NCBI GenBank assembly: GCA_050011565.1 | Contig: JBEKIW010000004.1 | Location: forward strand, 60,553 to 124,552 | Direction: 5' to 3' | Length of the DNA: 64,000 bases | Source: Dehalococcoidia bacterium | GTDB lineage: Bacteria > Chloroflexota > Dehalococcoidia > GIF9 > UBA5629 | Shown here: positions 29,175 to 53,290 of the stretch, one piece after another | Numbering within the stretch: position 1 is the stretch's first letter | Layout: each line of letters begins with the position of its first letter | Position numbers and translations under genes: made by a program | Notes under the pieces: model-generated | What the model was told of the DNA's origin: nothing | Database searches by the model: none | Seen by the model: the letters and a program-made list of their open reading frames with translations, nothing else

Positions 29175-29222
29175 GAAAAAAACCAAGAGCTTTAGTAACC
29201 ACTACTAAACCCTTGGTTTGAT
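29175..29222 (-). terminator. intrinsic terminator forming the expression platform of the thiC TPP riboswitch
   Basis: Minus strand reads AACCAAGGGTTTAGTAGTGGTTACTAAAGCTCTTGGTTTTTTTC (imperfect stem with U7 tract), then RBS TAGGAGA and the thiC ATG. Confidence 0.6.
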
Positions 29223-29227
29223 TTACC

Positions 29228-29330
29228 GCTTCCCTACGCTTGTATTACCAAGGTCAGGTTCTGACGGTTCTCCGCAATAACGGAGTCTCAGCCTGGTTTA
29301 TTTTTCTGGGCACCCCTAGCGGTTAGCTAA
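29228..29330 (-). promoter_or_regulatory. TPP (THI-box) riboswitch aptamer
   Basis: Minus strand reads ...CTAGGGGTGCCCAG...GGCTGAGAC...CGTCAGAACCTGACCTTGGTAATACAAGCGTAGGGAA. Contains the invariant THI-box elements (GGGGUGCCC, CUGAGA, ACCUGAUCUGGAUAAUGCCAGCGUAGGGAA-like 3' half). Lies directly 5' of thiC. Confidence 0.8.
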
Positions 29331-31367: not shown

Positions 31368-32966
31368 TTAGCCCAGCTTACGCAGTTCCGCTCTCAAAAC
31401 TTTGCCTAAAAGGTTCTTAGGCAATGCGTCAATAAATTCTACACTCTTAGGCGTTTTAAAGGTGGGCAGGCATTCCTTGCAAAAAGCTATCATCTCTTGT
31501 TCGTTAGCTTGCTCCTGCGCTTTGAGCACAACGAAAGCCTTTATTTCTTCTCCATAGGTCTTATCCGGGACGCCGATAACACCGGCTTCGGCAACCTTGT
31601 GATTTCGATAAAGAACCTCTTCTATTTCTCGTGGAGATACATTTTCTCCCCCACGGATGATAATATCCTTTTTCCGATCAGTGATGTACAGATAACCGTC
31701 TTCATCCATATAGCCTATATCACCTGTGTAAAGCCAGCCGTTCCTGATAGCCTGTGCTGTATCCTCAGGCAGGTTCCAGTAGCCTTTCATCAAAGTAGGG
31801 CCCTTTACTACGATCTCGCCTCGTTGTCCCTGCGGTAGCTCGTGGTCGTTGTCGTCAAAAACTTTGATAACGTTGCATCTTAACAGGTTCTTGCCGATAG
31901 AGCCGTATTTAGGCGGGAGGTCAACCGGTTGTCCGGTGGTAGTGGCTCCCGATTCGGTTAGCCCCCAACCTTCTTTTATATCCACTCCTGTCTTTTCTTT
32001 CCACCTCAAGGCGATTTCCACAGGAAGTGCTGCTCCGCCGGAATTGCAGGATTGAAGTGAACTTAAATCGTATTTGTCCAGGTCTGGGAAATCCAGCATC
32101 TGTATGTACATGGTGGGCACCGCTGCCATATGTGTAATCTTAAATGATTGAATCGCTTTCAGGGCTTCCTCGACATTCCACCACCTGAGCACGACAGCTC
32201 TTCCACCTACGAAGGAACCCATAATGCTGAAGGCAATGCCATATGAGTGAGAAAGAGGCAGCACCCCCAGGCTGATCGTGGTCCGACTAACGCCGGTAAT
32301 ACCCAGCGATTCTTCGATTGGTTTAAGTGTCTTGGGGTCTATGGAATAGATTGTTGAGCGAACAGTCAGTGGCAGGTGGATGAGGACATATTCAAAAAAG
32401 CATAGGGCATTGATGTAAAGAGAATAGTGGGTATGCATCACTCCTTTAGGCTGACCTGTGGTGCCGGCAGTGTAGATTAAAGCTGCAACATCATTGTTAT
32501 CGGTTTCTTCTGCAATTAGTTCGTCTGAGCTATCGGACATCAGTTTACGGTATGAGAGCGTCCCGGGAATGTCATCTTTGTCGGTCAAGATGATATATTT
32601 CAACTTGGGAGCCTGTTTCTGTGCCTCTAGAATCCATCCCAGATAATCCGAGCTGGTAAGTAAAGCTTTGGCTCCGCAATCGCGATATATATAAGAGGCC
32701 TGGTCAGGCCGAAGCAGCGGATTTAAAGGTACTACTATGCCACCTATCTTGTATATGGCAGGGAAAGCTGAAAATACAGGCGGGCTGTTTGGCATCTGCA
32801 CCGCTACCTGGTCCCCTTTGCCGATTCCAAGCCCCTTTAATGCATTGCCCAGTTGATTGGCGGTGCGATTTGTTTCAGCGTTGGTATACCATCTGCCTTC
32901 GAAGTAGATACTCTCATACTCCCCGAACCTTTTAACATTGTCCTCGATGAGACTACCGATATTCAT
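31368..32966 (-). CDS. AMP-dependent acyl-CoA synthetase/ligase
   Basis: 532 aa. AMP-binding motif (YTAGTTGQPKGV), TGD and C-terminal lysine region. Confidence 0.85.
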   Translation of the reverse strand: MNIGSLIEDNVKRFGEYESIYFEGRWYTNAETNRTANQLGNALKGLGIGKGDQVAVQMPNSPPVFSAFPAIYKIGGIVVPLNPLLRPDQASYIYRDCGAKALLTSSDYLGWILEAQKQAPKLKYIILTDKDDIPGTLSYRKLMSDSSDELIAEETDNNDVAALIYTAGTTGQPKGVMHTHYSLYINALCFFEYVLIHLPLTVRSTIYSIDPKTLKPIEESLGITGVSRTTISLGVLPLSHSYGIAFSIMGSFVGGRAVVLRWWNVEEALKAIQSFKITHMAAVPTMYIQMLDFPDLDKYDLSSLQSCNSGGAALPVEIALRWKEKTGVDIKEGWGLTESGATTTGQPVDLPPKYGSIGKNLLRCNVIKVFDDNDHELPQGQRGEIVVKGPTLMKGYWNLPEDTAQAIRNGWLYTGDIGYMDEDGYLYITDRKKDIIIRGGENVSPREIEEVLYRNHKVAEAGVIGVPDKTYGEEIKAFVVLKAQEQANEQEMIAFCKECLPTFKTPKSVEFIDALPKNLLGKVLRAELRKLG

Positions 32967-33073
32967 GATTCCTCTTTCCCCGGCTTTCTAATTTTAGGCG
33001 GTAACCGATTTTAACTGCCCTGAAGGTTGATAGGATAGTACACTTGTAGATTTTCAACGTCAAGTCTTGTGAA

Positions 33074-33099
33074 ATATATAGGAATTTATTCCTATATAT
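33074..33099. promoter_or_regulatory. perfect inverted repeat (candidate operator) in the divergent intergenic region
   Basis: ATATATAGGAA-TTTA-TTCCTATATAT: 11-bp arms, 4-nt spacer. Sits between the divergently transcribed CoA ligase (start 32966) and the HMGCS-like gene (start 33200). Confidence 0.35.
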
Positions 33100-33199
33100 A
33101 CTTGTCTGAAGTTGCAAAGGTTTGACTGGTAACGGGGGCTGTGCTAGTCTACAGTTACTGTTTTTTCCGTCCAACAATTGTTAATCAGGAGGTTAATTA

Positions 33200-34642
33200 A
33201 TGGTAGGCATTAAATCATACGGCGCTTACATCCCAAGGTATCGGATAAATCACAATACAATCTTTTCTGCAGTAGGGTTCCTTGGTACTTTTCCGCCACC
33301 GGGTGAGAACGCAGTTGCCAACCATGATGAGGATACGCTTAGCATGGCAGTAGCTGCCGGCGTTGATTGCTTGAATAGCATGAAAAGAGAGGAGATAGAA
33401 GGACTCTATCTGGCAACCACCAGCCAGCCCTATATGTTAAGGCAGAACTCAGCATTAGTGGCGGCTGCACTGGACCTGCAAAATAATATTAGAACTGCAG
33501 ATTTCCTTGGCTCTAACAAGGCAGGAACGGGTGCACTTCTTTCTGCCTTTGACGCCGTCAAAGGCGGTACATTAACCAATGTACTGGTCTGTGCCTCTGA
33601 TTGCCGTGTAAGTAAACCGGGTAGCTCGCAAGAGCCTCTATATGGTGATGCCGCTGCCGCTGTCCTTATGAGCAGTGATGACGTCATTGCTACACTCGAA
33701 GGTCACTTTTCTATATCTTATGATTTTCCTGACCGCTGGAAAGCAACCAGTGATAAATTTGAACATGCCTGGGAAGATAGGTTTATTCGCGACGCGGGCT
33801 ATACCAAGATTATACCCGAGGCAATTTCCGGCCTGCTGAAAAAGTACAACTTAGCTATTACTGACTTCACCAAAATTGCATTTCCTGACCTTTATCCTAG
33901 AGAACATGCCGCGATAGTCAAACGATTGGGCGCCGACCCTCGCCAGATTCAGACATCGTTGCTGGATAAAGTCGGTGATAGCGGTGCGGCTTCGCCCCTG
34001 ATGATGCTGGTGGCAGCGCTGGAAGATGCCAAGCCAGGGGATAAGATAATGGTTGCCAGCTTCGGAAATGGCAGCGATGCTATGTTTTTCCAGGTAACTG
34101 AAAAGATTAAGAAGATAGGTGATAGGCGTGGCATAAAGAAGAATTTGGAGACGAAAAAGGAGCTTGCCAGTTACGAAAAATACCTCGCCTTTCGTAATCT
34201 GACACCTGTGGAGTTGGGGATGCGGGGTGAAATAGGTTTTCGCACTCCCATGTCTACATTGTTCAGGGAACGAGAAACAGTTTTGGCCCTGTGCGGCTCT
34301 AAATGTAAGCGTTGCGGGACGCCGCAATATCCACGCCAAAGAATATGCGTTAATCCTGACTGTGGTGCTGTAGACCAAATGGAGGGCTATCGTTTTTCTG
34401 ATAAAAAAGGTGTGCTGTTTACTTATACAGGTGACAATCTGGCAGCCAGCATTGACCCGCCCGCGATTTATGGGTTCGTAGATTTTGATGGCGGAGGAAG
34501 GTTCTGGTTTGACATTACTGATTGCGACCTGGACTCGACTAAAGTGGGCATGCCTGTGGAGATGACCTTTCGCAGGAGATATGTTGATGAGAGCGGTGGT
34601 GTTTATGGCTATTCCTGGAAAGCAATGCCAGTGCGTGCCTAA
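33200..34642 (+). CDS. HMG-CoA-synthase-like (UPF0219 / archaeal-type) domain fused to a C-terminal DUF35 (Zn-ribbon plus OB-fold) domain
   Basis: The N-terminal MVGIKSYGAYIPRYRI opening and thiolase-like fold over about 350 aa resemble archaeal-type HMGCS. The C-terminal 130 aa have CGSKCKRCG...CVNPDCG (Zn ribbon) followed by an OB-fold (FVDFDGGGRFWFDI...MPVEMTFRR), typical of DUF35. Confidence 0.7.
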   Translation: MVGIKSYGAYIPRYRINHNTIFSAVGFLGTFPPPGENAVANHDEDTLSMAVAAGVDCLNSMKREEIEGLYLATTSQPYMLRQNSALVAAALDLQNNIRTADFLGSNKAGTGALLSAFDAVKGGTLTNVLVCASDCRVSKPGSSQEPLYGDAAAAVLMSSDDVIATLEGHFSISYDFPDRWKATSDKFEHAWEDRFIRDAGYTKIIPEAISGLLKKYNLAITDFTKIAFPDLYPREHAAIVKRLGADPRQIQTSLLDKVGDSGAASPLMMLVAALEDAKPGDKIMVASFGNGSDAMFFQVTEKIKKIGDRRGIKKNLETKKELASYEKYLAFRNLTPVELGMRGEIGFRTPMSTLFRERETVLALCGSKCKRCGTPQYPRQRICVNPDCGAVDQMEGYRFSDKKGVLFTYTGDNLAASIDPPAIYGFVDFDGGGRFWFDITDCDLDSTKVGMPVEMTFRRRYVDESGGVYGYSWKAMPVRA

Positions 34643-34674: not shown

Positions 34675-35877
34675 ATGGCAGAAGGTATTAGAGATAAGGT
34701 AGCTATCATCGGCATGGGCTGTACAAAATTTGGTGAGTTGTGGGATAAAGGCGCTGAAGACCTGATGGTGGACGCCTTCCAGGAATGCATTGAGGACGCC
34801 GGTATGGAAAAGAAGGATATCCAGGCAGCCTGGTTTGGCGTGCATTTTGAGGAGCAAAGTGTGGGAAAAGGGGCTACCTCTATGGCACTAGCGCTAAAGC
34901 TTCCTTTTATTCCTGTTACCAGGGTTGAAAACTTCTGCGCTACCGGCACGGAAGCTCTGAGAGGGGCTTGTTACGGCGTAGCTTCGGGGGCATACGATAT
35001 CGCTTTAGCCTTAGGTGTGGAAAAGCTAAAGGATACCGGGTATGGCGGCCTTCCCGGCGGCCAGGGCCTTTTAGGGTCCAGAAATGCGCTTATAATGCCT
35101 AAAATAACAGCACCGGGAAGTTTTGCCATGCTGGCGACGAGGTATTTCGCAGTGTACAGCCTCAGCCCCGAAGAAGGTAAGAAAATGCTGGCCAGGGTAT
35201 CAGCCAAAAGCCATCATAATGGTTCTTTGAACCCCAAGGCACATCTGCGACGCGAAATAACTGTGGAGCAGGTTATGAATGCTCCAATAATTGCCTGGCC
35301 GCTGGGGCTTTTCGATTGCTGCGGTGTCAGCGATGGTTCGGCAGCAGCTATCGTAACCACAGCTGAGCTGGCTAAAAAGTTCAGGCCTGACCCCGTATAT
35401 ATCAAATCTCTCCAGATTGCCTTAAGTTCGGGCGAGGAATTGATGTATACCAAATGGGATGGCGCGCATGTCGAGACCGGATTTCGCGCCGGAGTTCAAG
35501 CCTATAAAGAGGCCGGAGTTAAAAATCCGCGTAAAGAAATTAGCATGGCTGAAGTACATGACTGCTTCTCCATAACCGAAGCGGTAACTATGGAGGATTT
35601 GCAGTTCAGTCCCCGAGGAAAGGTTAAAGAAGATATCGAGGCTGGACGTTTCAATCTGGACGGCGAGCAGCCTGTTCAGCCCGACGGCGGATTGAAATGT
35701 TTCGGGCATCCTATCGGTGCCTCCGGCCTGCGTATGATGTACGAGATGTATAAGCAGCTGCAGGGCAAAGCCCAGTTGCCGGAACGACAGTTAAAGAACC
35801 CCAAGCTGGGATTAACTCATAATATGGGTGGCTTTCCGGCCATGAATATTGTTAGCGTGGCCATTGTTGGGTTATAA
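34675..35877 (+). CDS. thiolase-like protein (SCP-x / nonspecific lipid-transfer-protein type)
   Basis: 400 aa. N-terminal catalytic Cys region (VENFCATGTEALRGA), C-terminal GHPIGASGLRMM and CCGVSDG motifs. Confidence 0.8.
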   Translation: MAEGIRDKVAIIGMGCTKFGELWDKGAEDLMVDAFQECIEDAGMEKKDIQAAWFGVHFEEQSVGKGATSMALALKLPFIPVTRVENFCATGTEALRGACYGVASGAYDIALALGVEKLKDTGYGGLPGGQGLLGSRNALIMPKITAPGSFAMLATRYFAVYSLSPEEGKKMLARVSAKSHHNGSLNPKAHLRREITVEQVMNAPIIAWPLGLFDCCGVSDGSAAAIVTTAELAKKFRPDPVYIKSLQIALSSGEELMYTKWDGAHVETGFRAGVQAYKEAGVKNPRKEISMAEVHDCFSITEAVTMEDLQFSPRGKVKEDIEAGRFNLDGEQPVQPDGGLKCFGHPIGASGLRMMYEMYKQLQGKAQLPERQLKNPKLGLTHNMGGFPAMNIVSVAIVGL

Positions 35878-36202
35878 GACGGAAGAATGAACTTAAAAGG
35901 CAGGCTGTGGCTGATGGTGCGCCGGCGATATTTGACCTATATCAGGAAAGGGTATATGCTGGGCAGTAATTTACGTCTGATGCTATTGACATGCTGTGGT
36001 ATAATATTTGCCGTACCTCCGATTGTATTTTGTATTGAATATGCTATAAACTGGTCACATGAATAAAAAACAAATCTTATTAGTGGAAGGGGGTGGTCGT
36101 ATCGAGTGAATAAGACCAAGCATGCCGGGGCAAACATCGGTCGATGGTGTTTGTCAGCAAATTTGTCCTTAAGAGGAAATGTTTTAGGAGGTTAATGGCT
36201 AA

Positions 36203-38092
36203 GTGAAAAAAGTTCTGTTCTTATTGTTTACCTGTCTCTTACTTGTAGCGATTGTACTTCCTGCCTGTAAGCCTGGTCCAGCAGTTACCGGGCCAGTAAT
36301 AAAGATAGGCGTCATCGGGCCGATGCAATATATACAGGGCGAGCATCACTGGTGGGGTGCTGAGATGGCTCGTGATGAAATAAATGCGGCAGGTGGTGTA
36401 AAGGTCCTCCCTGACCAGCCCCCGTATATGGTTGAGCTAATCAAAGCAGACTCCAATGAAATAAACAGCATTACCGATGCCTCCGCGGCCATGGAAAAGT
36501 TGATAACGGTAGACAAGGCACAATTTGTGGTCGGGGGCTTCAGGACGGAAGCTGTCTTCCCCATGCAGGAAGTCGCCATGGACAACAAGATAATTTTCAT
36601 GAATTGTGGCGCGGCTACACTTGCACTACAAACGCCGGTGTTGACGAATTATGACCGCTATAAGTACTACTTCAGAGTCACTCCATTCCAATCCGGCTAT
36701 CTAGTCCAGAATGTGTTAATGTCAATGTCAATGGCCGAAAAAATAATAAAAGAGGATACCGGGATACAAAGGCCGTTGAATGCTGCTGTCTTTACTGAAG
36801 GGGCGCAGTGGGCTGATGCCATAACGTCAATCATGCAATCGCTGATTCCTACGAAGCTGGGTATGAAAGTCGTTGGCACATGGAGACCATCGCCTACAGC
36901 CACAGATTGTAATGCCGAGATGGCAGCTATACAAGCTGCTAACACCGACATTATCGGTGAAGTTATATCCGGCCCGCTTGGTGTACCATATGCCAGGTCA
37001 TGGGGCGAGCTGAAAGTACCGGCAGCTTCAGTGGGCATTAACGTTGAGTCCCAGGCTTTCACCTTCTGGGAAGCGACTCAGCATTTCGGCAACTTGGAGA
37101 CTGGCCTGGTTACATTAGCTGAGAACACAGCGGTTACGCCGAAGACTGTCCCGTTCTACAATGCCTTTGTAGCGAAGACCGGACAGCCACCCATATATAC
37201 TGGTGCCGGCACTTACGATGCCGTCTATACCTTGGCAGAAGCCATAACCCGGGCAGGGACTCTGGATTCAGATGCCGTGGTTGCTGAGCTGGAAAAGACG
37301 GATAGAGTTGGGGCTGGGGCCCGCCTTGTATTTACGGGTATTGATGATCCGTCGAAGGATCCTCACGACGTGACCTACGGTCCCGGATTTTCAACGGGTA
37401 TCGCCGGGCAGTGGCAGGATGGAAAATTGGTAGGTGTCTGGCCGAACCCTAACTATGTCGGGTATGTTCCGAATGATGCCTGGAAAACGGTGTCATATGA
37501 GGGAATGGTTAAGTGGATACCACGCCCCGAGCTAATCGACAAGTTGAAGGCCGAGGCGGCTACGCAACCGGCGGCACCCCCAGCGGGAGAACAACCTGCA
37601 GCACCTCCGGCGGGAGAACAGCCGGCAGCACCTCCAGCAGCAGGATTAGCGACTTACACCAACACCGAGTATGGTTTCTCCGTTCAATATCCTGGTGACT
37701 GGGTAGCGCGACCAGAGCTCATCATTAAGCCTGAATTCCAAAAGGCTGCATACGGTGTATCTGGCTTTGTTCCAGGGTTTGTTGCTTATGCCTTTGCTAA
37801 TCCTCCGGAGGAGTCTAAAGATTGGATCGTTACGTCTTTCAAGGCGACAGGCAATACAATGCCTAAAGTGACCTCAGACATCAAACAGGAGACTCTGGCG
37901 GATGGTACTCAAGCTTACACGTATAAAGCAAGCTATGTATCTGCCACTGGATATGGGATAGAGTCGTACGTCCTCGATGCAGATAAGGGAACCACCCGGT
38001 TTCGTGTGAATGTATTTACTATACCTGATATGGCTCCTATGGATGAGGCGCTGGCTTCGCAAGTTGCTCACTCTTTGACCTTTACAAAGTAA
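36203..38092 (+). CDS. Liv-type ABC transporter substrate-binding lipoprotein fused to a Pro-rich linker and a PsbP-like C-terminal domain
   Basis: 629 aa. GTG start, lipobox LPACK. Residues 30-440 are a periplasmic-binding-protein type I (LivK family) fold. Residues 455-480 are PAGEQPAAP x3. The C-terminal 150 aa begin YTNTEYGFSVQYPGDWV (PsbP-like hallmark). Confidence 0.7.
   Translation: MKKVLFLLFTCLLLVAIVLPACKPGPAVTGPVIKIGVIGPMQYIQGEHHWWGAEMARDEINAAGGVKVLPDQPPYMVELIKADSNEINSITDASAAMEKLITVDKAQFVVGGFRTEAVFPMQEVAMDNKIIFMNCGAATLALQTPVLTNYDRYKYYFRVTPFQSGYLVQNVLMSMSMAEKIIKEDTGIQRPLNAAVFTEGAQWADAITSIMQSLIPTKLGMKVVGTWRPSPTATDCNAEMAAIQAANTDIIGEVISGPLGVPYARSWGELKVPAASVGINVESQAFTFWEATQHFGNLETGLVTLAENTAVTPKTVPFYNAFVAKTGQPPIYTGAGTYDAVYTLAEAITRAGTLDSDAVVAELEKTDRVGAGARLVFTGIDDPSKDPHDVTYGPGFSTGIAGQWQDGKLVGVWPNPNYVGYVPNDAWKTVSYEGMVKWIPRPELIDKLKAEAATQPAAPPAGEQPAAPPAGEQPAAPPAAGLATYTNTEYGFSVQYPGDWVARPELIIKPEFQKAAYGVSGFVPGFVAYAFANPPEESKDWIVTSFKATGNTMPKVTSDIKQETLADGTQAYTYKASYVSATGYGIESYVLDADKGTTRFRVNVFTIPDMAPMDEALASQVAHSLTFTK
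37571..37645 (+). repeat. 27-nt tandem repeat (about 2.7 copies) encoding the PAGEQPAAP linker
   Basis: GCGGCACCCCCAGCGGGAGAACAACCT / GCAGCACCTCCGGCGGGAGAACAGCCG / GCAGCACCTCCAGCAGCAGGA. Confidence 0.7.
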
Positions 38093-44500: not shown

Positions 44501-46333
44501 TTACAGCTCGTCCTCTCTCAATTCCCGCCTAGATACTTTGCCGACATCTGTCTTTGGCACTTCACCCCTGAACTCTACGATTCTGGGACATTTATAGTGC
44601 GCCATATGTTCCGCGCAATATTTCATGATTTCTTCTTCGGAGACTTTGCCTCTGGCGTCCGTCTCGAGGACGACGATGGCTTTGACTTTCTCTCCGACGT
44701 TTTTGTCGGGAACCCCGATTACACCCGCCTCTTTGACCAGTGGATGCGCTTTCAGTACCTCCTCCACCTCCCTGGCGAATACCGCCAGGCCCTTATATTT
44801 AATCATGTCACGTTTTCTATCGTAGAAAAAGAAATAGCCTTCTTTGTCCATTCTGGCCAGGTCGCCGGTTCGAAGCCATGTTTCGCCGCCGATTTTGACG
44901 AACATTTTCTTCGTCTCTTCCGGATTATGCCAGTATCCTGGGGATATTTGTGGACCCCTGACGGCAAGCTCGCCTATCTCGCCAACAGGCAGAAATTTGG
45001 TGCTTTCAGGACTGAGTATTCCAGCTACTGTGTTACACATGGGGACGCCGAAAGAACCGACCTTCGGCCTGCCGTATGGACTACCCATTCCAATAGAGCT
45101 AGTCTCAGTCATACCCCAGCCCTCATGTATTTTAGTATTTGTCCGTTTCTCCCAACCTATCGCCGTATCTTCAAGAAGGGCATCGGCGCCGGAGACGAGA
45201 ACTTTGAGGCGCTTCCAGTTAATTCTGTCCGTACGTTGATAATCTCTGAGGTACTCATACAAAGACGGGACGCTGAAGAAAATAGTTGCCTTGTAGCTTT
45301 CGATGGCATTTAAGATGTCGTCGAGGTCGGGGGTGGTGAATATCACCAGGGTGTAGCCCTGAGCCAGACCACCCAACATAATCACTGCCTGACCGTAGAT
45401 ATGGTAAAAGGGCAAATATGCCAGTATGGTCTCTTTGCCTTCCTGGACAATATTTCCCCAGAACTCTGAGCCTATGTACCTGGCTGCAGTGATATTATAG
45501 TGGGTTATCATAGCTCCTTTGGGAAGTCCTGTTGTGCCGCCGGTATAGGGCAGGGTTACCAGGTCCTCATGAATATTGAACTTGATTTTTGGCGGCTTGG
45601 GCGGATATTTCTTAATCAAGTCCTGTAATTGATAAATTCCTTCTCTTTCATATATCTCAGAAGGTGGTGCTGCCATCTTCTGGTATACAGCCCTGAGTAT
45701 GCTGCTGCCCAGGAACTTTTTTAGCCCGGGTAAATATTCTGCAATACTGGTCAGGATAACCTTATCCAGTTTGACTCCTGACCGTTCCACATTTTCATAA
45801 AGTATATCCTGGCAGACGATTATCCGGGCGCCGCTGTCTTCAATTTGATGTTTGATTTCGGGACTAACATAAACAGGACTGATGGCAGTCAGTATAGCTC
45901 CAGCCTTCAGGGCGCCGAAATAGGCTATGATGAATTGAGGTGAGTTCAGGAGCAGTAAAGCAACCCTATCACCTTTTTTGACTCCCAGGTCCTGCAAGGC
46001 TGTGGCGAATCTATCGACGTGGTCTCTTAATTCGCGGTAGCTTATTTTTCTACCGTAGAATATTACGGCGGTCCTATCCTTCCATTTAGTTGTAGCTTCA
46101 TCGAAGGTTTCGACTGCGGATTTTTCCGGTATTTTGACATCCGCGGGCACCTCTTTGAGGTAAAACTTCAGCCATGGTCTTTTTTCATATATTGCCTTGT
46201 TTGGGTCAGCCTTTGGAGCAGCTTTCTTTACTTGAGCTTTCTTTAGTTGAGCTTTCTTTAGTTGAGCTTTCTTTAGTTGAGCTTTCTTTGGGTGAGCCTT
46301 CTTTGGGTGGGACTTCTTTGGGTGAGCCTTCAT
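44501..46333 (-). CDS. AMP-dependent acyl-CoA synthetase/ligase with a lysine-rich N-terminal repeat tail
   Basis: Paralog of 42507..44216, about 75% identical by eye. The start is taken at ATG 46331-46333, preceded by TTAGGAGGAGACGACACA. The N-terminus is MKAHPKKSHPKKAHPKKAQLKKAQLKKAQLKKAQVKKAAPK. Confidence 0.8.
   Translation of the reverse strand: MKAHPKKSHPKKAHPKKAQLKKAQLKKAQLKKAQVKKAAPKADPNKAIYEKRPWLKFYLKEVPADVKIPEKSAVETFDEATTKWKDRTAVIFYGRKISYRELRDHVDRFATALQDLGVKKGDRVALLLLNSPQFIIAYFGALKAGAILTAISPVYVSPEIKHQIEDSGARIIVCQDILYENVERSGVKLDKVILTSIAEYLPGLKKFLGSSILRAVYQKMAAPPSEIYEREGIYQLQDLIKKYPPKPPKIKFNIHEDLVTLPYTGGTTGLPKGAMITHYNITAARYIGSEFWGNIVQEGKETILAYLPFYHIYGQAVIMLGGLAQGYTLVIFTTPDLDDILNAIESYKATIFFSVPSLYEYLRDYQRTDRINWKRLKVLVSGADALLEDTAIGWEKRTNTKIHEGWGMTETSSIGMGSPYGRPKVGSFGVPMCNTVAGILSPESTKFLPVGEIGELAVRGPQISPGYWHNPEETKKMFVKIGGETWLRTGDLARMDKEGYFFFYDRKRDMIKYKGLAVFAREVEEVLKAHPLVKEAGVIGVPDKNVGEKVKAIVVLETDARGKVSEEEIMKYCAEHMAHYKCPRIVEFRGEVPKTDVGKVSRRELREDEL
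46221..46333. repeat. 15-nt tandem DNA repeat (about 7 copies) encoding the K-K-A-(Q/H)-(L/P) tail
   Basis: GCTTTCTTTAGTTGA x3, then GCTTTCTTTGGGTGA / GCCTTCTTTGGGTGG / GACTTCTTTGGGTGA. Confidence 0.7.
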
Positions 46334-46365
46334 TGTGTCGTCTCCTCCTAATTTGCTAAGCGTCA

Positions 46366-46376
46366 AGTATAACACA
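46366..46376 (-). promoter_or_regulatory. extended -10 promoter element TGtTATACT for CoA ligase paralog 2
   Basis: Minus strand reads TGTGTTATACTTGAC... followed by the RBS and ATG, matching the architecture of the leader at 44217-44260. Confidence 0.35.
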
Positions 46377-48264: not shown

Positions 48265-49107
48265 AAATGGGTTAGTTCATTTGTAGAACTCTATTATTTC
48301 TCCTCTCCTAGGTTAATCTTTAGAGAAATTACTGATGAGCCACCCCATCGTCTGTTGGCGACTTACGTAACTGAAACATTTGTACACAACCCAAGTGTTC
48401 TAAACGCCTGTTTTATAGAAACAGATTATTCTCACCTTTACTTCCTTGCATTGATAAACTCGTCACTTTTGTCTGAATATTTTTATCGAACAAGTCCAAA
48501 GTCGGGCAAGGGACTATTTCCGAAAGTATTAGTCGAAGACATTAGGAGATTTCCCATACGCCGCGTCTCCTTTACCACACTTCGTGAACGGCGTGAGGCA
48601 TTGGTCGGTCAAGGCCGCCAGCTTTACGAGGTAGATCCGTCAAGCGTAGTCGCGTTCGTGGAAGAGCGTCTTTCCGCTCAACCGGAAGAATCAGATGTGG
48701 TGCATGACCTGCTGGCTTTCCTGGCGGAGGAGATGATACGGCTCAACAAAGAGAAGCAGTCCAGGATTAAAGTGTTTTTATCCTGGCTTGAGAAGGAGAT
48801 ACTGAAAGGCTCCGTTGAAGACCAGAAGAACAAGACAAAGATAAAGGACTTCTATAACAATACCTTTGAGGATTTGCTGGATGTGCTTAAGAAAAATAAG
48901 ATTATCCCGGACCCGTGCCCGTCCAACATACGGGACATTATAGCCAGTGAATTTTCGGCGGCTGTGAATGCCCTTACTCCACTAAAGACTCGAATCAAAG
49001 TAACCGATGACCTCATTGACCAGATAGTCTATAGACTCTACAGCCTTACCGATGATGAAATATCCATCGTGGAAGGCAGTATTACCACGACAACTCGAAC
49101 AAAATGA
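48265..49107 (+). pseudogene. fragment of a type IIG restriction-modification / BREX PglX-like protein (C-terminal TaqI_C-like specificity region only)
   Basis: The translation (..PRLIFREITDEPPHRLLATYVTETFVHNPSVLNACF...FLALINSSLLSEYFYR...FPKVLVEDIRRFPI...) resembles the C-terminal specificity region of gamma-class N6-adenine methyltransferase / type IIG enzymes. The reading frame is closed by TAA at 48262, there is no ATG, and the N-terminal methyltransferase domain is absent. Upstream is 590 nt of AT-rich non-coding DNA. Confidence 0.5.
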
Positions 49108-51719: not shown

Positions 51720-51767
51720 GGCGTTGTCTGCTGCCTATGTTAAGGCGCAGGTGGATGGTTGTCAACT

Positions 51768-51875
51768 GGAAATCCCCCTTTATCCCCCTTTTTCAAAGGG
51801 GGAAATAGGCTTCTCCCTTTCCTAAAGGGAGATTGAGAGGGATTTTACCTTCTTACAAATCCCCCTTTATCCGCT
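51768..51875. repeat. structured intergenic repeat element, copy A (one full unit of about 77 nt plus a partial unit)
   Basis: AATCCCCCTTTATCCCCCTTTTTCAAAGGGGGAAATAGGCTTCTCCCTTTCCTAAAGGGAGATTGAGAGGGATTTTA, then CAAATCCCCCTTTATCC. Nested palindromes: CCCCCTTT/AAAGGGGG, TCTCCCTTT/AAAGGGAGA, outer AATCCC/GGGATT. Confidence 0.65.
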
Positions 51876-53143: not shown

Positions 53144-53289
53144 AAAAATCCCCCTTAATCCCCCTTTTTCTAAGGGGGAGACGAAGAATAAAAGTTAGAA
53201 GTAGGGATTTAAGATCCCCCTTAACCCCCCTTTTCCAAAGGGGGAAATAGACCTCTCCCTTTCGTAAAGGGAGATTGAGAGGGATTTTA
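53144..53289. repeat. structured intergenic repeat element, copy B (a diverged partial unit plus one full unit)
   Basis: ...AAAATCCCCCTTAATCCCCCTTTTTCTAAGGGGGAG...TAGGGATTTAAG ATCCCCCTTAACCCCCCTTTTCCAAAGGGGGAAATAGACCTCTCCCTTTCGTAAAGGGAGATTGAGAGGGATTTTA. The full unit is about 90% identical to copy A. Confidence 0.65.
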
Positions 53290-53290
53290 G

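Follow-up and report, generated by a model that had tools for sequence, protein, structure and literature searches.

The window analysed here (the whole stretch of 64,000 nucleotides of Dehalococcoidia DNA) contains a 233-bp gap between two divergent transcription units, and a palindrome lies inside this gap. On one side is a gene for an AMP-binding acyl-CoA ligase (31368..32966, minus strand), which is nearest to long-chain-fatty-acid-CoA ligase models, just under their cut-off. On the other side is a gene for an HMG-CoA-synthase-like (HMGCS-like) condensing enzyme with a C-terminal DUF35 region (OB_ChsH2; zinc ribbon plus OB fold; 33200..34642, plus strand), preceded by a Shine-Dalgarno (SD) sequence, AGGAGG, at 33187..33192 (plus strand) and followed by a thiolase gene of the archaeal/SCP-x type (34675..35877, plus strand). 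The nearest solved relatives of the two plus-strand proteins are the archaeal thiolase/HMGCS/DUF35 complex (PDB 6ESQ) and PhlA/PhlB/PhlC. The HMGCS-like/DUF35 fusion is PhlA/PhlB-like and similar to archaeal HMGCS/DUF35, and the thiolase is of the type that is the partner in 6ESQ. The divergent arrangement of a CoA ligase and an HMGCS-like/thiolase operon, proposed in an initial annotation made from the sequence alone, is therefore borne out by gene identification. Genes for a Liv-type binding protein, two permeases, two ATPases and two further ligases follow 3' of the thiolase. As a conserved extended -10 promoter and a long leader precede the binding-protein gene itself, the plus-strand unit adjoining the palindrome comprises only two genes in this genome; the annotated operon is present, with this limited extent.

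The region between the thiolase gene and the gene for the 629-aa binding protein (35990-36205) carries the strongly conserved extended -10 promoter (CTATTGACAT..CTGTGGTATAAT). The ~190-nt leader that follows has invariant blocks ACCUCCGA, GUGGAAGGGGGUGG and GGCAAAC...GUUUGCC, an SD sequence, and an ACCUCC complementary to the SD region. It has no Rfam match at E≤1, and the 8 sequences compared show almost no covariation; it may regulate the Liv-type transporter genes in cis. The window also carries an rpsB-tsf-pyrH-frr-cdsA-dxr-rseP-ispG-proS block, thrS-infC-pheST, and a known element, the TPP riboswitch (RF00059, 69 bits; 29214-29327, minus strand), 5' of thiC. Two copies of a ~70-nt element (51760-51840 and 53220-53290) flank trypsin-like protease/TM2 genes beside a serpin gene; each has two hairpins, CCCCCTTT-N3-AAAGGGGG and TCTCCCTTT-N3-AAAGGGAGA, followed by TTGAGAGGGATTTTA, and the element is either an intergenic repeat present in dispersed copies or a terminator/operator common to both sites. 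Another acyl-CoA ligase ORF (44501-46375, minus strand), counted from the first GTG, has a lysine-rich repetitive N-terminal extension (KKSHPKKAHPKKAQLKKAQLKKAQLKKAQVKK); the JGI call is 14 codons shorter (610 versus 624 residues). A 250-aa ORF at 48355-49107 (plus strand), whose only matches are to a fragment of the TaqI_C specificity domain and, weakly, to Ydc2-like proteins, looks like the remnant of a type II restriction-modification gene.

Sequence reading and a repeat finder define the palindrome as ATATATAGGAAT-TT-ATTCCTATATAT (33074..33099), 26 bp in length, with a left arm ATATATAGGAAT (33074-33085) and a right arm ATTCCTATATAT (33088-33099) of 12 nt each, 100% complementary, and a spacer of 2 nt. 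The perfect 11-N4-11 inverted repeat originally described here is thus correct but not maximal, the full structure being 12-2-12. No second match to the 26-mer occurs in the 64-kb window at up to 3 mismatches, and the 16 specified bases of TATAGGAA-N4-TTCCTATA are likewise single in the window with up to 3 mismatches allowed. Perfect inverted repeats with arms of at least 12 nt and spacers of at most 6 nt were counted in the window and in 60 dinucleotide-preserving shuffles of it; the window has three, each shuffle has none, and the analytic expectation is ~0.03 per window. The suggestion that such a repeat is unlikely by chance is upheld by these counts and by its uniqueness in the window. 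The other inverted repeats in the window, including the other two with arms of at least 12 nt, are G+C-rich, terminator-like hairpins at gene ends; 33074-33099 is the only A+T-rich one among them, and it is placed where two genes diverge. As a non-random dyad, it falls in the size range (~14-26 bp) of operators of dimeric helix-turn-helix (HTH) proteins. As single-stranded DNA it folds into a hairpin of modest stability (-7.1 kcal/mol, z = -5.7) with an 11-bp stem and a 4-nt loop. An intrinsic terminator can be rejected, as none was found in the scan, the stem is rich in A+T, and the genes on either side are read away from it. A dif/Xer site is rejected too, as the palindrome is lost in syntenic close relatives and there is no GC-skew switch here.

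Two sigma70-type promoters are predicted in the gap. The ligase promoter (33035..33063, minus strand) has a -35 hexamer TTGACG (33063..33058), a 17-nt spacer and a -10 hexamer TACTAT (33040..33035). Its consensus-scan match is not significant by itself, but the block is 88% identical across 12 orthologs, and the hexamers are also kept in a sister clade with a MarR gene. The HMGCS-like operon promoter (33122..33150, plus strand) has a -35 hexamer TTGACT (33122-33127), a 17-nt spacer and an extended -10 element TGc-TAGTCT (33142-33150). It was read from the sequence and not called by the scan tool, its -10 matching at just 3/6 positions; in a 12-sequence alignment of orthologs its -35 is 97% and its extended -10 is 93% identical. 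The elements of both promoters are conserved in all relatives, clades without the palindrome included. With usual spacing, transcription would start at ~33028 (minus strand) for the ligase and at ~33157 (plus strand) for the HMGCS-like operon. Across the clade the ligase promoter hardly varies, even in its 17-nt spacer (ATAGTACACTTGTAGATTTTnnACGTCAAGTC), which exceeds what promoter function alone needs, and the region contains a small dyad, TACA-CT-TGTA; it may hold a second operator overlapping the core promoter.

The palindrome lies between these promoters, 10 bp and 22 bp upstream of their -35 hexamers, and overlaps neither. Its centre (33086.5) is at ~-58.5 for the ligase and ~-70.5 for the operon, relative to the predicted start sites. 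Among lineages that keep the palindrome the spacing to both -35 boxes is constant within 1 bp, so that it has a fixed phase to the predicted promoter elements, as an operator would. The location between divergent promoters of acyl-CoA genes is therefore as first annotated. However, the position was also said to be that expected for the operator of a TetR/IclR/FadR-type repressor, and this is not supported: the conserved promoters, as predicted, flank the palindrome, which does not overlap a -35, -10 or +1 element. A site so placed would be more usual for a class-I-type activator, or for an upstream repressor that blocks the polymerase alpha-CTD or forms a loop. A MerR-type arrangement, with the palindrome within an over-long spacer (TTGTGA-20-TATATA), was rejected because these hexamers are not conserved, and a downstream sigma-54 promoter was rejected by eye, as the spacing and GG/GC elements do not fit.

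To follow the palindrome through related genomes, orthologous loci were gathered with exact-protein look-ups and one metagenome scan, giving 13 distinct loci. The palindrome clade comprises those with the ligase and HMGCS-like genes divergent and immediately adjacent, with 84-100% protein identity to the window. In all of these orthologs the element is located 121-125 nt from the ATG (121-124 nt where the site is kept). The conserved core is TATAGGA-N6-TCCTATA (7-6-7; 33077..33096), the inner six and the outer ATA/TAT varying between lineages. The core is intact (14/14) in the window (100% protein identity), L003 (96%), L010 (95%), L085 (93%), L096 (88%), L017 (86%) and L018/L062 (84%), and nearly so in L013 (13/14, 90%) and L016 (12/14, 86%). 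It is degraded in L005/L095 (11/14; 89% and 90%, respectively), L015/L086 (11/14, 87%) and L087 (10/14, 86%), and is largely erased in L011/L012 (95%). Where it is kept, the core is 91-95% identical (95% over the two 7-mers), versus 53-57% in the adjacent spacers. The window and L018 are identical at 20/20 core positions, although identity falls to 38-48% in the spacers next to the core and to 49% at the third positions of codons in the neighbouring genes; at a background identity of ~45% the probability of 20/20 by chance is of the order of 1e-7. Only four conserved islands are seen in the intergenic region: the palindrome, the two promoters and the SD sequence. A lack of conservation in orthologous intergenic regions had been proposed as grounds for dismissing the palindrome; it passes this test, being conserved far above the surrounding DNA.

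The changes that are tolerated affect the six inner positions (AATTTATT, AATTTTGT, AATTTCTT, AAATTATT) or the outer ATA/TAT; the two 7-mers are held. Mismatches in a single arm are found in L013 and L016, and no compensatory double changes were seen in the palindrome across the orthologs. This is the pattern of variation that would be expected for two symmetric protein-DNA contact patches, and not for a hairpin stem. Taken together, the palindrome is real, is under selection, and is placed and phased as a cis-regulatory site common to the two divergent promoters would be.

The presence of the site is related to the gene content of the operon. In every lineage with an intact site, the HMGCS-like and thiolase genes are directly followed by the binding-protein gene; in L010, a 35-codon SDR remnant persists. 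In every degraded-site lineage an SDR gene is retained after the thiolase, and in L011/L012 both MaoC genes are as well. Palindrome integrity and an SDR gene (with or without MaoC) after the thiolase are mutually exclusive in 13/13 distinct orthologous loci (degraded-site L005, L011, L086 and L087 versus intact L003, L010, L016-L018, L085 and L096), corresponding to ~6-7 independent lineages. L096, obtained in a further look-up that served as a blind test of this exclusion, fitted (site intact, SDR absent); L095, from the same look-up, is the L005 lineage again. In a tree of concatenated HMGCS-like and thiolase sequences, the site-keeping lineages are monophyletic in 0/200 bootstraps, and single-gene trees agree. 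L011, which has lost the site and kept MaoC and SDR, is nested in the window's own group (88-100% support). Thus, the split is not explained by shared ancestry. The simplest reading of these trees is that the site was ancestral to the clade and has decayed at least three times, each time in an SDR-keeping lineage. The promoters of site-lost lineages are unchanged, with no visible compensating change, and so the site is dispensable in some genomes.

Relatives with 82-83% identity (L008/L009 and L090/L091) do not carry the palindrome and instead have a divergent MarR gene and a FabK-like enoyl reductase gene at the junction. TTGTGYACA repeats in these loci (L008 5800-6000, L090 7800-8000) overlap the predicted -10/+1 of marR (TTGACA-17-TATAAT). 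The operon of this sister clade encodes the HMGCS-like protein, thiolase, MaoC, MaoC and SDR (then SDR, ACAD and ACAD). It resembles the KT/DUF35-reductase-dehydratase module of a proposed archaeal fatty acid synthase (bioRxiv 10.1101/2024.07.05.601840). A MarR gene with different repeats at the same intergenic position suggests that this junction is a regulatory hotspot of the cluster. In relatives with 75-78% identity the palindrome is also absent, and other conserved elements are found instead.

A search for the regulator itself was made in the window, in its flanks and in the related loci. No DNA-binding transcription factor was found with Pfam among all window ORFs of at least 150 aa, and none of the small ORFs in the window's gene gaps resembled a regulator when translations were inspected by eye; on both counts, the observation that the window lacks a regulator gene holds. 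No regulator is present among the gene calls in the 10 kb past each window end (84 kb examined in total); the sole signalling gene found is a PAS histidine kinase ~14 kb to the left of the window start. A TetR, IclR or GntR gene is adjacent in none of the orthologous loci. The adjacent regulator gene that would mark a local repressor of the TetR, FadR or IclR type is thus absent from the window, from the 10 kb on either side and from the palindrome-clade orthologous loci. The sister-clade MarR was considered as the missing factor and rejected, as its intergenic repeats differ and the examined DNA of the palindrome clade contains no MarR homolog. The TTGTGYACA regions of L008 and L090 match the core at best at 9-10/14 positions, so no motif is shared. 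A literature search returned nothing on the motif or on regulation of this cluster in Chloroflexota.

Further copies of the site, which had been proposed as a way to define a regulon, were sought at two levels of stringency. In the first, the exact 9-2-9 core TATAGGAATNNATTCCTATA was scanned over 185,579 species-representative genomes, an exact-match search that misses imperfect sites. It returned 37 loci, and the only one from Dehalococcoidia is L062, the orthologous locus itself. The remaining exact matches are heterogeneous: most are long A+T-rich hairpins with T-runs in Clostridia, or sites in high-GC genomes beside plasmid or transposon genes, among them sites adjoining genes for resolvase, RepA or DnaA-C-like proteins, and one is a 443-bp satellite; their neighbours point to no common family of regulators. 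In the second, matches of at least 12/14 with spacers of 3-9 were allowed across the window, a further 20 kb of the source contig and every related locus (558 kb). Beyond the orthologous sites this gave one 12/14 match in a coding region (L008/L009) and three off-spacing 12/14 matches (window, L092 and L093), and thus no convincing second site in the 84 kb of source contig or the 558 kb of related loci. The regulon search therefore found no second copy, either in these sequences or, for the exact core, in the Dehalococcoidia representatives. Dispersed copies, as would be seen for a MITE or REP element, are not found either: the palindrome is single-copy in 84 kb, and exact matches in Dehalococcoidia representatives are orthologous only.

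In a viral collection, one phage contig carries six tandem ATAGGAAT-AT-ATTCCTAT palindromes (L094 115-320, IMG/VR UViG_3300022744_000703) beside genes for a 71-aa HTH protein and for the small and large terminase subunits. The array, which has the same dyad, probably serves in phage packaging or partition; it is unrelated to the present locus, and indicates that the dyad can serve as a protein-binding repeat. A contig labelled as a Chloroflexota MAG (L076, JAAENC010000568.1; 1.28 kb, 30% GC) consists of a 443-bp tandem repeat with TATAGGAATAAATTCCTATA in each unit, and resembles a satellite or a contaminant more than it does DNA of a Chloroflexota genome.

The palindrome is probably the operator of a homodimeric sequence-specific DNA-binding protein that is encoded elsewhere in the genome. 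Each monomer would read one TATAGGA half-site, the key TAGGA/TCCTA pentamers being ~11 bp, or one helical turn, apart. The dimer would be bound between the back-to-back sigma70-type promoters, upstream of both -35 boxes, and would modulate both units together, the centres at ~-58 (ligase) and ~-70 (operon) being roughly one helical turn apart. It might contact RNA polymerase from upstream (class-I-type activation) or, alternatively, block upstream polymerase contacts or form a loop (upstream repression). The sequence, non-randomness and position of the palindrome, its selective conservation and that of the flanking promoter elements are observed, whereas protein binding, the start sites and the sign of regulation are inferences; on the sign, we lean slightly towards negative or non-essential modulation. 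This is because the promoters look self-sufficient (near-consensus -35 hexamers, and an extended -10 for the operon) and are unchanged where the site has decayed. Several points count against an operator: no regulator gene lies in the 84 kb examined, a single distant target is less usual for a transcription factor than a neighbouring one, a regulon is without support as there is no second site, and the site has decayed in at least three lineages.

Other explanations can be weighed against the same data. A TetR/IclR/FadR-type dimer on the palindrome could act as a steric repressor by occluding one or both core promoters, as would suit an acyl-CoA divergent promoter region, a perfect dyad of operator-like size, and A+T-rich arms with TATATA strings that are conceivable -10 boxes. 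However, the palindrome is flanked, at the distances given above, by the promoter elements that every clade conserves, the TATATA ends and the sole upstream -35-like TTGTGA (20-nt spacer) are not conserved in the core-keeping L013, L017 and L018, and genes of the TetR, IclR and GntR families adjoin none of the orthologous loci, which makes occlusion rather unlikely. We also think it unlikely, and a little more so, that the palindrome is the cis element of a regulatory rewiring that followed splitting or truncation of the operon, being dispensable and decaying while the operon is intact; the idea comes from the mutual exclusion of the palindrome and the in-operon SDR and MaoC genes, which the gene trees show to be repeated and not inherited. 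Breakage of an ancestral HMGCS-like/thiolase/MaoC/SDR operon would then have created a need for a trans factor, for example to co-regulate relocated partner genes; in an exotic version, the palindrome could be the target of a recombinase and itself mediate the cassette losses. A role independent of protein, as a cruciform-prone or bent A+T-rich palindrome that senses or relieves negative supercoiling, or as a shared UP-like element, is suggested by the perfect A+T-rich dyad, by its predicted single-strand fold (z = -5.7) and by its site between diverging promoters, where, according to the established twin-domain model, negative supercoils accumulate and might be expected to do so here. Yet conservation extends to the identity of the bases, including the G/C pairs of GGA/TCC, and goes beyond pairing potential or A+T richness. 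L010, L013, L016 and L096 have unpaired inner positions or mismatches in one arm with no compensatory changes, and an 11-bp stem is short for cruciform extrusion in vivo; such a role is improbable.

Recombination has to be considered because the 12-2-12 inverted half-sites are those of serine invertase/resolvase crossover sites (hix, gix), because the same 20-mer occurs beside a gene for a resolvase in one Caulobacter genome and beside one for RepA in a genome of the Terriglobales, and because the palindrome is at a junction of clade-variable gene blocks (marR-fabK-like present or absent), with gene content differing on both sides. That it is a recombination site or the relic of a mobile element is nevertheless very unlikely. 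There is no recombinase gene and no partner copy in the 84 kb of source contig, the related loci also lacking a second copy, and the sister clade has no such site flanking its extra genes. A relic would be expected to decay neutrally, but the core shows no change between lineages that are saturated at silent sites, and the constant distance to both promoters points to a role in transcription. It is just as doubtful that the palindrome works at the RNA level, forming an attenuator hairpin or a site of processing within a transcribed leader or an antisense transcript. A stem of 11 bp closed by a 4-nt loop is possible, but the palindrome is upstream of both conserved promoters and hence probably untranscribed, its A/U-rich stem has no T-run and is unlike the G+C-rich terminators of the genome, and 33074-33099 has no Rfam match and no covariation. 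Finally, a functionless chance palindrome would fit with decay in several lineages, but its absence from all 60 shuffles and the 20/20 identity despite saturated silent sites and flanks of 38-48% identity make this extremely unlikely, and the conservation data effectively refute it.

Regulation in non-dehalogenating, uncultured Dehalococcoidia is almost unexplored, and candidate cis-elements with comparative support are very few. TATAGGA-N6-TCCTATA provides a concrete 20-bp bait for factors cloned from MAGs, and the site-kept and site-lost genomes are a natural set for phylogenetic profiling of the missing factor. The product of the flanked genes is a thiolase/HMGCS-like/DUF35 complex, with PhlABC and the archaeal complex that channels acetoacetyl-CoA as its relatives, in bacteria that use the MEP pathway (dxr and ispG are in the same window). 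Once known, the control of these genes would help to assign a role to the complex in these bacteria.

Among known systems, ArsR/SmtB-type operators and hix/gix recombination sites have the same 12-2-12, 26-bp geometry as the palindrome. However, an ArsR/SmtB operator overlaps its target promoter, that of a neighbouring metal-resistance operon which also encodes the regulator, an arrangement absent here, and hix/gix sites are paired and accompanied by an invertase gene, neither of which is found here. The MarR operator of the sister clade (L008/L009, L090/L091) belongs to the same gene cluster and intergenic junction, with a local regulator, but differs in having the MarR gene adjacent and in the sequence and position of its TTGTGYACA repeats. 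The GalR operator OE is an upstream repressor operator centred at -60.5 of galP1. Its likeness to the present site is that a dimeric HTH protein upstream of -35 acts on polymerase from a distance, a mode that fits the loss of the site here with no promoter changes; unlike the present case, GalR loops with a second operator, none being found here, and the sequences are unrelated. Class I activator sites of the CRP/FNR family that divergent promoters share are 22-bp dyads, TGTGA-N6-TCACA (5-N6-5, or else 5-N4-5), centred near -61.5 or -71.5. The palindrome resembles them in its 5-6-5 core (TAGGA-N6-TCCTA) and in its dyad of 20-22 bp, and its predicted location upstream of the -35 boxes of two back-to-back promoters would be similar, with centres at ~-58.5 and ~-70.5 that rest on predicted start sites. 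However, its half-site is TAGGA and not TGTGA or TTGAT, no CRP/FNR-family gene is known for this genome, and the near-consensus -35 boxes of both predicted promoters are unusual for activator-dependent promoters. The element is thus an ordinary operator-like palindrome in kind, although it has stronger support than the majority of predicted sites: it adds an orphan case to a very familiar type, and shows a curious anti-correlation with operon content.
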